Shown piece by piece: positions 26,397-51,479 of a stretch of 60,535 nucleotides of DNA; positions within the stretch are counted from its first letter, which is position 1, and the number at the start of each line of letters is the position of its first letter. The notes beneath the pieces are model-generated. The model had not been told where the DNA came from. It saw only the letters and a program-made list of their open reading frames with translations, and searched no databases. This DNA is from Mycobacterium phage phiGD23-1. Location: sequence record MW314855.1; one strand, given 5' to 3'. A program made the translations under genes and the position numbers.

Positions 26397-26437
26397 CCCT
26401 CAATTTTACGCCGTTGCAGTCGAAGTCGCGGTGTCTA
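26394..26437 (-). promoter_or_regulatory. SAS-like 44-nt element E (minus strand): TAGACACCGCGACTTCGACTGCAACGGCGTAAAATTGAGGGATG
   Basis: Matches consensus TAGACACCGC-N21-wAAwTTGAGGTATG; ends at the start codon of 26076..26396. Confidence 0.7.
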
Positions 26438-46832: not shown

Positions 46833-47146
46833 TGCCGCACTCAAGCCCTACCGACTGGATAGCCGGTGGAAGTGTCGCCGCAGACATCGTTGGATGCCTC
46901 ACCGGTCTGGTCGCGGACCTGTCCTGGCAGGATAAAGCGGCGTGCCGTGGACTCCCTACGGAGTGGTGGTTCCCGGACCAAGGCGGCAGCCGGGAATGTA
47001 AGCGGGCCAAGGAAATCTGCCACGGCTGCCCAGTCAAACTCCAATGCCTCCAATTCGCGATAGAGGTACACGACCAGCACGGAATTTACGGGGAGCTGTC
47101 ATTGAAGGACAGGCGCAGGTGGAACCAGGAAAGGAAAGCGGGCTAG
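46832..47146 (+). CDS. whiB: WhiB-family transcription factor (second paralog)
   Basis: C…CxxCP…C pattern and HGIYGE. Confidence 0.7.
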   Translation: MPHSSPTDWIAGGSVAADIVGCLTGLVADLSWQDKAACRGLPTEWWFPDQGGSRECKRAKEICHGCPVKLQCLQFAIEVHDQHGIYGELSLKDRRRWNQERKAG

Positions 47147-48400: not shown

Positions 48401-49078
48401 GTGTCCGTCTCCGACAGCTTCTTTCTCGATAAAGGCTCCCAACACAAGCTCCGTGAAGAGTTGGCCAGCATCCCCCGCATGATCGGGGAGCTGTCCGTCA
48501 CCCTCACCCGCCAGGCTCGCATCCAGAGGCCAGGGTTGAGTATGTCCCGAAGGCCCAAGCCTGAGTCTCAGGTCCCCATCCATATCGGGGCACACAACGC
48601 CGCTGACGTACTGCACAACTGCCTAGGTACGTGGGTGAGGCTGGTATGCGAACAACGAGCGATCGTGTGGGATAAGGGCAACGACATCATCACGCTGGCC
48701 AAGTGGCTGCGAGTCAACATGATCGCCCTAGCCCTCACTGAAGGTTCAGAAGAAGCGTACGAGGACATCAAAGCCGCTATCGATGACTGCTGGCGACAGA
48801 TAGACATCCCCGCCGACGATGACATTGTGATCGACCGAGGACGAGTACATGAAGCGAACAAACACATCGTCACCGCCGACACCATCGAACCTATCGCCCG
48901 CCGGATAGGGGAGATGGGAAAGAAGCTGAATGCGCAGCGGGTGCACTCGCTTACCCGTGGTGGGCATCTGCGTCCAGTCTCTAGCGACCCGGACACGGGT
49001 AAGAAGTTCTACCGACTGGGGGATGTGCTGCACGCGCACAACAACTGCGAGAAACGAGACCGAAAGAAGGGCGCATGA
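48401..49078 (+). CDS. Hypothetical protein (225 aa)
   Basis: ORF. Confidence 0.35.
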   Translation: MSVSDSFFLDKGSQHKLREELASIPRMIGELSVTLTRQARIQRPGLSMSRRPKPESQVPIHIGAHNAADVLHNCLGTWVRLVCEQRAIVWDKGNDIITLAKWLRVNMIALALTEGSEEAYEDIKAAIDDCWRQIDIPADDDIVIDRGRVHEANKHIVTADTIEPIARRIGEMGKKLNAQRVHSLTRGGHLRPVSSDPDTGKKFYRLGDVLHAHNNCEKRDRKKGA

Positions 49079-49275
49079 GCGACGGACGCGGCATGTACAT
49101 GAAGTACCGAGTTGAGCGGATGGACGGCAAGGATATGGGGCCATGTTTCATCCTTGAATACAAGAAGGATCGCCACGCGCGGGTGGCACTTGCGGCGTAT
49201 GCCGACGCGTGCGCCGAGGACAATCCTGGACTAGCCCAAGACCTGCGGTGGACGCTAGAGGAGCTGGAGCGGTGA
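49075..49275 (+). CDS. Hypothetical protein, paralog of the C-terminal segment of 38386..39381
   Basis: Shared motif KYRVERxDGK…CFxLEY…. Confidence 0.35.
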   Translation: MSDGRGMYMKYRVERMDGKDMGPCFILEYKKDRHARVALAAYADACAEDNPGLAQDLRWTLEELER

Positions 49276-49851
49276 GGGTCGGGACCTGTCCGAAGTGTAA
49301 GCACTTGGAAGGTCGACACATCCAGTCCACGTACTTCGATGAAGAGACGTGGACTGGCCGATTCGTGTACGCCAGGTGCGATTGTGGCTGCACCCACTAC
49401 GTCGTAGTGGAGCCGGTCTAGTGTCGGCCCTCGACTGTGAGGGGAGTGACCTAGATCCTGGTTGGTGCTGCACCCATAGATGCGATTTCAGGGACCCTAG
49501 GCATCCGCACTGCTGGCAGAACTGTGACGAAGAAGATTGCGCCGCCCCTGAGTGTGATTGGGTTGAGTAGTTCACGCTGGTCGCACATACTGCGCAGGCC
49601 AAGGTATCTCACGCATCTTCCACGCCTGCGTAGGGTTGGCCGCAGTGACCCAAACGATAGGCATATCGCGTCCGGGAACTACCCGAGTGGTAGTTAGACA
49701 CTCAACTTCACCACCGGTTGCGGTGGTTACGTAGACACGCATTCTAGCTTCAATACCCATACGTCTAGCGTCGGTCTTGCCAAAAGATCTGTAAAGAAAA
49801 ATCTATGCGACACCGCGTTATGGCAGTGCCTTATGGCAAGCCGCAAAGGGA

Positions 49852-50112
49852 GTGAAACTGATGAACGTATGGATAGTCTCTGCGCATCGGTCCTGGGGCG
49901 ACAGGATTGAATACCACGGACACAGGGGGGATACCCACCGCTGGATGGGCTGGACGCGACCCATACCCAAGGTGGGGGAAGTTATTGAAACTGAATTGAA
50001 GTCCGGACGGGCGGCCCGCTTTCGGATAGTTGAGGTTGAGCGCGGGTACGGCACGGATGATATGTGGTGGGCCACAACCTCGGACGCGCCCATTTATGGA
50101 GCGACGACGTAA
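49852..50112 (+). CDS. Hypothetical protein (GTG start)
   Basis: ORF after an ORF-poor region. Confidence 0.35.
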   Translation: MKLMNVWIVSAHRSWGDRIEYHGHRGDTHRWMGWTRPIPKVGEVIETELKSGRAARFRIVEVERGYGTDDMWWATTSDAPIYGATT

Positions 50113-50158
50113 CTGCCTCCACCTTGCATAAGTATATCGGTTCTGATATATTAATGAG

Positions 50159-50491
50159 GTGACCGACGAAAAGCCTCTCCGCTGGATAGGTACCTCACTT
50201 GAGGACCTACGGGACTTCCCCGAAGCGGCACGGCAGGACGCCGGTTACCAACTGGATAGGGTTCAGCACGGCCTAGAGCCCCACGACTGGAAGCCAATGC
50301 CAACAGTCGGCAAGGGCTGCCGCGAGATACGCGTACGCACCGAAGACGGCGCGTACCGTGTGTTCTACGTAGCCACCCTTGGGGATGTGGTGTTCGTACT
50401 GCACAGCTTCGTCAAGAAGTCACAGAAGACTTCCCAGCAAGACATCAACACCGGTAAGGCTCGATACAAGAAAGCGCAGGAGGAACTATGA
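50159..50491 (+). CDS. higB: HigB/RelE-family toxin (Gp49-like, PF05973-type)
   Basis: …RVFYVATLGDVVFVLHSFVKKSQKTSQQDINTGKAR… matches the Gp49/HigB-like pattern; followed by an overlapping HTH antitoxin gene. Confidence 0.75.
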   Translation: MTDEKPLRWIGTSLEDLRDFPEAARQDAGYQLDRVQHGLEPHDWKPMPTVGKGCREIRVRTEDGAYRVFYVATLGDVVFVLHSFVKKSQKTSQQDINTGKARYKKAQEEL

Positions 50492-50739
50492 GCGTATGGG
50501 ACGACATCGCCGACACCCCGCGCGAAGCGGAGAACCTTCGCGTGCGGTCTGAGCTGATGATGGCAATCGAAAAGAAGATCAACGAGCGCGAATGGACCCA
50601 GGTCCAGGCCGCCGAAGCACTCGGACTGACCCAGCCTCGGGTGTCGGATCTGCTGCGCGGCAAGATCTCCAAGTTCTCCTTGGATGCTCTCGTGGACATC
50701 GCTTCCGGGTTGGATGTGCACGTGAAGGTGTGCGTCTGA
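50488..50739 (+). CDS. higA: HigA-like XRE-family antitoxin
   Basis: …LRVRSELMMAIEKKINEREWTQVQAAEALGLTQPRVSDLLRGKISKFSLDALVDIASGLDV… canonical HigA-type partner; ATGA overlap with the toxin. Confidence 0.75.
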   Translation: MSVWDDIADTPREAENLRVRSELMMAIEKKINEREWTQVQAAEALGLTQPRVSDLLRGKISKFSLDALVDIASGLDVHVKVCV

Positions 50740-51010
50740 TTGCGACACGCCGACCAGGGGATATACCCCTTAACCGCTGTCAAGTAGTAAACTGCGCATA
50801 GGCGCGACTTACACCCATTCTTTTAAACCCCCATCGACATTTGTTCGGTGGGGGTTTTTCTATGCCCAAACGGAGGTTCCCTTATGCCTCTGTCTCGTGT
50901 CCGCTGCTGCATCCCCTGTGGCCGTATCCGCTACGCCCCCTGCTCTGCAGGGTGTCGAGTAGATCCCGAGAACGACCCAACAAGCTGGACAGAACAGGTG
51001 CCGCCGAGCG

Positions 51011-51235
51011 ATGAAGCTGAGTAAGGAAGCGCGCAATACCGTCGCCGACTGCATCAGTAAGGGCATCCACCTGACGCTGGACGTTCAGTGCGATGGCGAG
51101 CCGATGGGCGGCTGGTGCGATAAGTGCGAGAAACCGTCGATGGTCGAAGTGCAACTGCGTGGCATCTCCACTGACGCCGTGTACGACCTCGGACCCGCCG
51201 TCGTATGTGCAAACCATGAGGCTGGCGATGATTGA
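51011..51235 (+). CDS. Hypothetical Cys-rich protein
   Basis: ORF. Confidence 0.3.
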   Translation: MKLSKEARNTVADCISKGIHLTLDVQCDGEPMGGWCDKCEKPSMVEVQLRGISTDAVYDLGPAVVCANHEAGDD

Positions 51236-51479
51236 ATGTCTTGGTTGCGGCTCGACGGTGGGGCAAGACGGCGATTGCCCGCGCCCCGAACACTGCGGAA
51301 ACTGCCCACCTTGGGACTGTGACGAATGCGGCCAGCAGTGCTCGATCAACACCCCTTGCGGGTGCTGGATTTTCCTTGAAGGCATGAACCTCGCCGACAT
51401 CAAGGCGGTACTCGCCGCAGCCGATCTGAGTGTCAATGTGGAGGTGCCGCCATGCTCGACAGATTCTTCGCGGCACTAG
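51228..51479 (+). CDS. Hypothetical Cys-rich protein
   Basis: ATGATTGA start/stop overlap with upstream. Confidence 0.3.
   Translation: MIECLGCGSTVGQDGDCPRPEHCGNCPPWDCDECGQQCSINTPCGCWIFLEGMNLADIKAVLAAADLSVNVEVPPCSTDSSRH

Follow-up and report, generated by a model that had tools for sequence, protein, structure and literature searches.

A two-gene toxin-antitoxin (TA) cassette in the right arm of Mycobacterium phage phiGD23-1 is, on balance, probably a self-contained Gp49/HTH_37 type II TA moron situated in the early-lytic operon of a MabA1 prophage, expressed in the resting prophage and with abortive infection as its most likely role. The window, meaning the whole stretch of DNA that was analysed (record MW314855.1), is 60,535 nucleotides long and was found to be a cluster MabA1 prophage of Mycobacterium abscessus. 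That the cassette (Table 1) is a real and active module of the HigBA type is regarded as very probable; the chances that the pair has a role in defence are judged to be about even. A first-pass annotation had proposed a prophage-borne HigB/HigA-like (Gp49/HTH) type II system at this position, and the proposal was upheld by the profile matches, the predicted folds, the catalytic residues and the conservation of the pair in unrelated genomes.

The two open reading frames (ORFs) were recovered exactly as that annotation had described them, with the 110-residue toxin beginning at GTG, the 83-residue antitoxin beginning at ATG, a 4-nt ATGA overlap between them and the toxin gene first. A search against PF05973, which had been suggested as a check, was positive: the toxin matched the full Pfam Gp49 profile (positions 1-90 of 90) with an E value of 1.7e-24 and 86.1 bits against a cut-off of 23.9. 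The same protein was assigned to phrog_2523 (E 1.4e-37) in the PHROGs database, and PF05973 was present in 120 of 120 toxin homologs among the matches listed.

The tertiary structure of the toxin was predicted with AlphaFold (AF2) from an alignment of 47 homologs, giving a predicted local distance difference test (pLDDT) value of 87.5 and a predicted template modelling (pTM) score of 0.78. The model has strands at residues 7-9, 44-46, 54-60, 66-74 and 77-86 and helices at residues 13-18, 22-36 and 93-109, a predicted RelE-like arrangement in which N-terminal helices and an antiparallel beta-sheet are combined with the long C-terminal helix that characterises Gp49-like toxins. When the model was compared with the PDB using Foldseek, the best matches were ribosome-bound M. 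tuberculosis HigB1 (7nbu_Y, template modelling score normalised to the query (TMq) 0.71) and free HigB1 (7awk), followed by V. cholerae HigB2, S. pneumoniae HigB, ParE2 and RelE; the top matches were all HigB, HigB2, RelE or ParE toxins. The model thus establishes a predicted RelE/ParE-superfamily (BECR) fold for the toxin.

The catalytic pocket was mapped by combining a profile-to-PDB alignment with the residues listed by Mansour et al. 2022 (PMC9098466). HigB1 residues E66, R68, R77, F93, K95, Q98 and K99 correspond to E56, R58, R67, F84, K86, Q89 and K90 of the phiGD23-1 toxin, so that seven of the eight mappable pocket residues are kept, and E56, R58, R67, F84 and K86 are invariant across all 47 homologs. 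According to the same study, M. tuberculosis HigB2 and HigB3 lack K58, N73, F93, K99, K113 and R117, and their C-terminal helix is acidic. The phiGD23-1 toxin retains the counterparts of F93 and K99 (F84 and K90) and has a basic C-terminal helix (K100, R102, K104 and K105); at those positions it therefore resembles an active member of the family, and the conserved residues suggest that it is likely to be active.

The antitoxin matched the HTH_37 helix-turn-helix (HTH) profile PF13744 with an E value of 9.8e-24 and 83.4 bits (cut-off 27) and belongs to phrog_2339. By sequence, its match in the PDB was 2a6c (E 7e-15), and the profile extended to S. pneumoniae HigA and to M. tuberculosis HigA3 and HigA2. 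The AF2 model (pLDDT 92.8) showed a five-helix XRE fold, for which Foldseek returned 2a6c (TMq 0.77, 42% identity) and 2o38 as the closest structures, as well as HipB and M. tuberculosis HigA2. In the homolog alignment an N-terminal segment, SVWDxIADTPxEAENLRVR, was conserved, with V3 and W4 invariant; this segment is, by inference, a candidate toxin-binding region.

Published transcript and translation data could be placed on the cassette directly. Positions 49400-51100 of the window are 100% identical to prophiGD11-1, prophiGD17-2, prophiGD43A-1, prophiGD15-1 and prophiGD21-2 and 99.9% identical to prophiGD27-1; over the longer segment 46500-53500 the identity was 100% to five prophage records, and prophiGD27-1 was 99.0% identical over 93% of it. 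The chromosome of M. abscessus ATCC 19977 is colinear with phiGD23-1 at a constant offset of 1,726,242, and eight published 52-nt promoter strings and one protein from this strain (PMC4974804) are exact substrings of the window. Because the strings and the protein match at this fixed offset, the toxin is MAB_1762 and the antitoxin is MAB_1763, the genes for which transcription start sites (TSSs), ribosome occupancy and peptides were mapped by Miranda-CasoLuengo et al. 2016 (PMC4974804).

In those data the toxin gene gave 96 reads per kilobase per million (RPKM) by RNA-seq, 1177 RPKM by ribosome profiling (Ribo-seq) and two peptides; the corresponding values for the antitoxin gene were 84 and 1658 RPKM and one peptide. 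Flanking genes had Ribo-seq values of 0-3 RPKM, and MAB_1764, the annotated gene that comes next, gave an RNA-seq signal of 1.8 RPKM, down from 84-96 RPKM. Independently, RNA-seq of MabA1 lysogens, GD17 and GD43A among them, showed strong transcription of the TA pair, unlike the flanking phage genes (Dedrick et al. 2021, PMC8092301). These data demonstrate autonomous, leaderless expression in the lysogen and translation of both proteins. With its own promoter and terminator, and switched on in the lysogen while the neighbouring phage genes are off, the TA pair is a moron. For each of the two TA genes the Ribo-seq density came to 12-20 times its RNA-seq RPKM, a ratio that is near or below 1:1 for typical genes in the same table; the high ratio could mean very efficient leaderless translation or ribosome pausing.

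The promoter of the cassette, P1, lies in an AT-rich region with a GC content of 0.33, compared with 0.59 for the window as a whole. Only 6 nt separate the end of its -10 box from the toxin GTG, leaving no room for a Shine-Dalgarno sequence. A leaderless transcript beginning at 50159 was therefore predicted, and the published start site agrees: differential RNA-seq (dRNA-seq) gave MAB_1762 a primary TSS at 1776401, which is the G of the GTG at 50159, with a depth of 978 and a 5' untranslated region (UTR) of 0 (PMC4974804). The published 52-nt promoter string for this TSS is identical to 50109-50160. A generic sigma-70 scan found no promoter at the cassette, a result that is overridden by the published TSS. 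P1 is conserved at three other loci that carry the pair, L012 and L013 in other Mycobacteroides prophages and L011 in a mycobacterial island.

An inverted repeat, CATAAGTATATC-N6-GATATATTAATG, overlaps the spacer and the -10 box of P1. Its core, AGTATATC-N6-GATATA, occurs once in the whole window, where 0.04 occurrences are expected, and four loci share the block AGTATATCG..T.TGATATA.T without variation, though the coding sequence diverges by 10-14%. At L013, where the toxin is 90% identical, the promoter-operator region is essentially unchanged. L011, whose toxin shows 86% identity, has different flanks, and its repeat is a perfect 15-bp palindrome, CCCCACAAGTATATC gacttt GATATACTTGTGGGG; the -10 box there likewise ends 6 nt before the GTG. 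The repeat is a candidate operator for autorepression by the antitoxin. Such an operator would be expected for autorepression, which has been demonstrated experimentally for the GP49-type HigBA2 system of A. baumannii. A hairpin, GGGGATATACCCC (50756-50768), was also considered as a second antitoxin site and was rejected: GTATATC occurs twice in the window, both times within the cassette, but L013 has not kept the hairpin.

Two further start sites have been mapped within the cassette (PMC4974804). The first, at 1776609, is assigned to MAB_1763 with a depth of 92 and a UTR of 121, and its string matches phiGD23-1 exactly; the corresponding promoter, P2, lies within the toxin gene, and its transcript would encode the antitoxin alone behind a 121-nt leader. 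The second, at 1777042 with a depth of 540.5, also has an exact string match and belongs to P3, which sits between the antitoxin stop codon and the terminator, 25 nt before the hairpin. The P3 block GTAAACTGCGC(A/C)TAGGCGCG recurs unchanged in L012 and L013. The P3 start site implies an RNA of about 60 nt that would carry a pyrimidine-rich single-stranded stretch, or else a terminated leader for the downstream genes. The cassette is closed by an intrinsic terminator, which was missed by a simple terminator scan; this result is overridden by the RNA fold, in which the hairpin has a free energy of -21.3 kcal/mol and a z-score of -4.1. At this point L013 likewise has a terminator, whose stem differs in sequence. 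A search of Rfam with 49000-51300 gave no match at E values up to 1.

The pair is found well beyond the MabA1 prophages. A Gp49 gene followed by an HTH_37 gene with the same 4-nt overlap was present at L006-L008, in an alphaproteobacterial integrative element (ICE) beside a relaxase and an integrase; at a chromosomal site in L009 and L010; in L011, whose island also holds VapBC and an NTPase; and in L012 and L013. Toxin homologs are about 60% identical across phyla. A second variant, with toxins 86-90% identical, occurs in isolates of the M. abscessus complex and has the same AGTATATC-N6-GATATA core. In L012, an M. saopaulense prophage, the same promoter directly follows a different upstream gene, indicating that the mobile unit starts at the promoter and excludes gene 57 (49852-50112). 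The possibility that gene 57 is a third TA component was rejected, as it is absent beside the TA genes in L012 and L011 and has homologs in cluster C myophages without TA genes. The upstream gene in L012 (2273-2962 of that locus) is Thg1-like (PF04446, E 4.5e-28); a member of the tRNA-His guanylyltransferase family is unusual prophage cargo beside an mRNase toxin.

Homology with MabA relatives bearing different cassettes sets in again abruptly at about 50866. At the same slot, prophiGD102-1 has HicA/HicB, prophiGD91-2 has HicA/HicB on the opposite strand, and prophiGD02-2, prophiGD90-1 and CCUG48898T-2 have a pair annotated as a BrnT-like toxin and antitoxin; the CCUG48898T-2 pair is labelled as hypothetical proteins only. 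Pfam confirmed HicA and HicB at the slot. The BrnT-like label in prophiGD02-2 was not confirmed by Pfam at E values up to 1e-3, with a weak ribbon-helix-helix (RHH)-like match in the partner only. The survey of the slot left prophiGD22-1, GD20-1 and GD57-2 aside. Since HicAB, a BrnT-like pair or no recognisable pair is found at the same position, the slot is variable. A slot that always holds a TA pair was ruled out by L014-L016, three further related prophages, and from these sequence comparisons the slot is an exchangeable cargo position, often but not always TA-bearing.

The right edge of the variable slot is formed by a segment of gene 60, about 120 bp long, that is 94-99% identical over MabA1, MabA2 and MabA3 prophages. 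Gene 60 is annotated at 50848-51024 (+) from a GTG at 50848, which falls within the terminator hairpin. Conservation with relatives starts at GGAGGTT...ATG, and for this reason the true start is probably the ATG at 50884, which would give a 46-aa Cys-rich protein (MPLSRVRCCIPCGRIRYAPCSAGC...; phrog_1694). A more speculative proposal, which is judged improbable, gives the cassette a third working part in the P3 RNA, whose promoter and terminator position are kept in two other prophages despite a changed hairpin sequence. It could be a small RNA directed at the TA pair or at host targets, or a regulated leader gating transcription into the downstream lytic genes. The proposal further holds that the locus is a hotspot for defence-TA exchange in MabA prophages that shapes susceptibility to phage therapy.

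P1 fires at the G of the toxin GTG and produces a leaderless bicistronic mRNA, and the terminator ends the unit. From homology and the conserved residues we infer mRNA cleavage in the ribosomal A site, neutralisation and autorepression. The antitoxin would be translated from its own AGGAGG site and, aided by P2, would accumulate in slight excess over the toxin. An antitoxin dimer, probably with the toxin as co-repressor, would bind the inverted repeat over P1 and so keep the operon repressed. Free toxin would enter the A site and cut mRNA in the manner of M. tuberculosis HigB1, and the antitoxin would neutralise it. The likeliest role would be an abortive-infection type of protection of the lysogen from other phages; prophage retention would be a by-product. 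This role is favoured because the pair is expressed in the lysogen, because cassettes are swapped in close relatives, and because there is a precedent in the Gp49-family toxin-antitoxin-chaperone (TAC) system that aborts lambda infection.

Several observations weigh against an active, defensive module. Membership in the Gp49 family is no guarantee of activity, as M. tuberculosis HigB2 and HigB3 belong to it and are non-toxic (Mansour et al. 2022, PMC9098466). The residue corresponding to HigB1 N73 is D63 in the phiGD23-1 toxin, at a variable position, and the counterpart of HigB1 K58 could not be assigned from the profile-to-PDB alignment. The P2 start site, being weak, may instead reflect RNA processing. 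At the slot, the related prophages L014-L016 carry nothing recognisable as a TA pair. PADLOC gave no match to a defined system, only partial matches to the NsnC C-terminus (E 1e-4) and weak ones to HTH models; as plain HigBA pairs are not in its library, this result says little either way. Finally, no toxicity, RNA-cleavage, DNA-binding or phage-resistance assay of MAB_1762/MAB_1763 was found in the literature searched.

The first of these points leads to the main rival mechanism, under which the toxin, as with HigB2 and HigB3, would be attenuated or lack toxicity and the pair would be mainly a small transcriptional regulator or ribosome-binding factor. HigB2 and HigB3 neither are toxic nor block translation, the N73 position is not conserved, and both proteins of the pair are highly ribosome-occupied in growing cells. 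Nevertheless, an attenuated toxin is considered improbable in view of the seven pocket residues present, five of them invariant, the retention of F84 and K90, and a C-terminal helix that is basic and not acidic; moreover, the identity of about 60% across phyla, together with a cognate antitoxin, suggests purifying selection on an active pair. The main rival role retains the mRNase activity of the HigBA-type pair and assigns it to prophage addiction: if the prophage were lost, the labile antitoxin would be lost with it and the cells would be killed or arrested. Constitutive expression in the lysogen is consistent with addiction, as are the stabilisation of a plasmid by the GP49-type HigBA2 of A. 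baumannii and the carriage of Gp49/HTH_37 pairs on Tn3-family transposons and an ICE. An integrated prophage, however, is lost only through excision, which is rare, and close relatives have swapped in unrelated TA families or have no recognisable pair, a pattern more typical of diversifying defence cargo. Addiction as the principal role is thus judged unlikely, though the strongest of the competing roles, and it and defence are not mutually exclusive.

The possibility was also considered that the pair serves the lytic cycle of the phage, for example in host shut-off or timing, as its position among the same-strand early genes of the right arm might suggest. The cassette, however, is equipped with a promoter and a terminator of its own; close relatives do without it or have another in its place; and, contrary to such a role, it is strongly expressed in the published data from the uninduced lysogen beside silent neighbours. 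A lytic function is very improbable. Counter-defence, in which the prophage antitoxin would neutralise or cross-repress HigB-type toxins that belong to the host or to other elements, receives some encouragement from the operator core shared with the second variant of the M. abscessus complex. But what is carried is a complete toxin with an intact active-site signature and not a lone antitoxin, and no evidence for cross-neutralisation was found, so that counter-defence is the most remote of the alternatives. The abortive-infection role of an active HigBA-type pair remains the preferred reading.

The region upstream of gene 57 was examined as well. The first-pass annotation had called 49422-49851 an ORF-poor stretch with operator-like TTGCCA half-sites. 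The half-sites are unsupported, as the hexamer occurs 27 times in the window against 29.3 expected, which is chance frequency. The stretch does contain an AT-rich divergent intergenic region (GC 0.47-0.49), and to that extent the description stands; however, it is not a non-coding or regulatory stretch as a whole, since it encodes a 62-aa protein identical to MAB_4999c, with a full-length match to phrog_37576. MAB_4999c was reported as a Ribo-seq-supported 'New CDS' (coding sequence) of ATCC 19977, with 56 RPKM by RNA-seq and 61 RPKM by Ribo-seq (PMC4974804), and is unannotated in six of six GenBank prophiGD records. Its homologs are confined to three clusters, all in MabA-like prophages, with or without the TA pair. 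MAB_4999c was rejected as a TA component, being present without TA genes in L014-L016, and its occurrence in both contexts indicates that it is independent cargo.

The AT-rich stretch 49776-49840, which separates the divergent genes MAB_4999c and 57, has three TTATGGCA-like copies (49778-49838), two in tandem as (G/C)TTATGGCA and one inverted (CTTGCCAAAAG / CTTATGGCAAG). When CTTATGGCA was counted with up to one mismatch, 9 occurrences were found against 8 expected, which is chance overall; only the local three-copy cluster upstream of MAB_4999c is real. Judged by their placement, these repeats may be regulatory sites of the MAB_4999c and gene 57 promoters and not of the TA pair.

A different promoter unit, TAGACACCGC-N22-AATTGAGGTATG, is repeated in the window at 26428 and 30229 on the minus strand and at 47144, 51746, 52354, 52901 and 53213 on the plus strand; the exact 10-mer has 7 occurrences where about 0.1 would be expected. 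In the published dRNA-seq data leaderless TSSs (UTR 0, depth 165-1887) are placed at five copies, those of MAB_1757, 1766, 1768, 1770 and 1771, indicating that these copies fire in the lysogen. The repeated unit accounts for the gaps of about 38 nt that recur between genes of the early region.

Table 1. Features of the TA cassette and its surroundings; positions are those of the window, except for the last row, which uses the numbering of each locus
Feature	Position	Strand	Description
Toxin gene (MAB_1762; prophiGD11-1 gene 58)	50159-50491	+	110 aa, Gp49/HigB-type RelE/ParE-superfamily, leaderless GTG
Antitoxin gene (MAB_1763; prophiGD11-1 gene 59)	50488-50739	+	83 aa, HTH_37/XRE DNA-binding family
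Promoter P1	50124-50152	+	-35-like TTGCAT 50124-50129, 17-nt spacer, -10 TATATT 50147-50152
Operator candidate (inverted repeat)	50127-50156	.	CATAAGTATATC-N6-GATATATTAATG, 10/12 complementary, core AGTATATC/GATATA
Weak internal promoter P2 (in toxin gene)	50354-50367	+	-10 TACCGT 50354-50359, TSS A 50367
Shine-Dalgarno sequence of antitoxin	50478-50483	+	AGGAGG, 4 nt before ATG, within toxin 3' end
Promoter P3 (3' region)	50788-50800	+	-10 TAAACT 50788-50793, TSS A 50800
Intrinsic terminator	50825-50862	+	Stem AAACCCCCATCGACA / TTCGGTGGGGGTT then T-run; closes cassette
MAB_4999c gene	49572-49760	-	62 aa, in the stretch 49422-49851 described as ORF-poor
Slot cargo in MabA relatives (HicA/HicB or BrnT-like)	L002 3752-4338; L003 3624-4351; L004 4075-4802; L005 3748-4385		

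The TA pair has already been annotated and published and is a member of a well-characterised family, so that its identification is correct but ordinary. Both genes carry the labels 'toxin' and 'antitoxin' in six of six prophiGD records, and Dedrick et al. 2021 (PMC8092301) described at least nine TA systems in 19 M. abscessus prophages, mostly among the early lytic genes. MAB_1762/MAB_1763 and the prophiGD toxin and antitoxin have the same sequence throughout as the phiGD23-1 pair; earlier work on them did not give the Pfam family, a map of catalytic residues or an operator, and MAB_1762 is still a 'Phage-related protein' in ATCC 19977. The present analysis adds the family assignment, the active-site residues (K86, R58 and R67), the candidate operator and a promoter-to-terminator map that agrees with the published TSS data. 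MabA1 prophages are the commonest prophages of clinical M. abscessus, the type strain included, and a constitutively expressed HigBA-type module could affect the range of therapeutic phages from isolate to isolate as well as stress tolerance, an idea that is already in print.

Among known systems, PF_gp49 toxins are ribosome-dependent mRNases with a toxin-first gene order; an E. coli PF_gp49 member acts in abortive infection, and a Gp49-family TAC system aborts lambda infection (PMC11980606). M. tuberculosis HigB1 (Rv1955, TAC; 7nbu, 7awk) resembles the phiGD23-1 toxin in its Gp49 family, its long C-terminal helix and seven pocket residues, but the two are only about 20% identical. The HigB1 antitoxin needs a SecB-like chaperone encoded by a third gene, whereas the phiGD23-1 antitoxin is followed by the 3' region and the terminator. 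No SecB-like chaperone gene was found after the antitoxin, and the pair is accordingly not a TAC system; the next ORF encodes an unrelated Cys-rich protein of 46-58 aa that is also conserved in relatives with other cassettes.

The Gp49/HTH_37 Pfam pair has been reported to ride on Tn3-family transposons, and these pairs, like M. tuberculosis HigBA2 and HigBA3, share both the Pfam pair and the gene order with phiGD23-1. M. tuberculosis HigB2 and HigB3, however, lack several pocket residues, F93 and K99 included, and are non-toxic, whereas the phiGD23-1 toxin keeps F84 and K90. The HigBA2 system of A. baumannii plasmid pAB120 likewise consists of two genes in toxin-first order, a GP49 toxin and an Xre-HTH antitoxin. 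Its toxin is an RNase, its HigA autorepresses with HigB as co-repressor, and the plasmid is stabilised (PMC5906591). It differs from the phiGD23-1 pair in host phylum, and the phiGD23-1 transcript is leaderless. In addition, the predicted internal antitoxin promoter of HigBA2 is inactive, whereas a weak internal TSS has been mapped experimentally in the phiGD23-1 pair.

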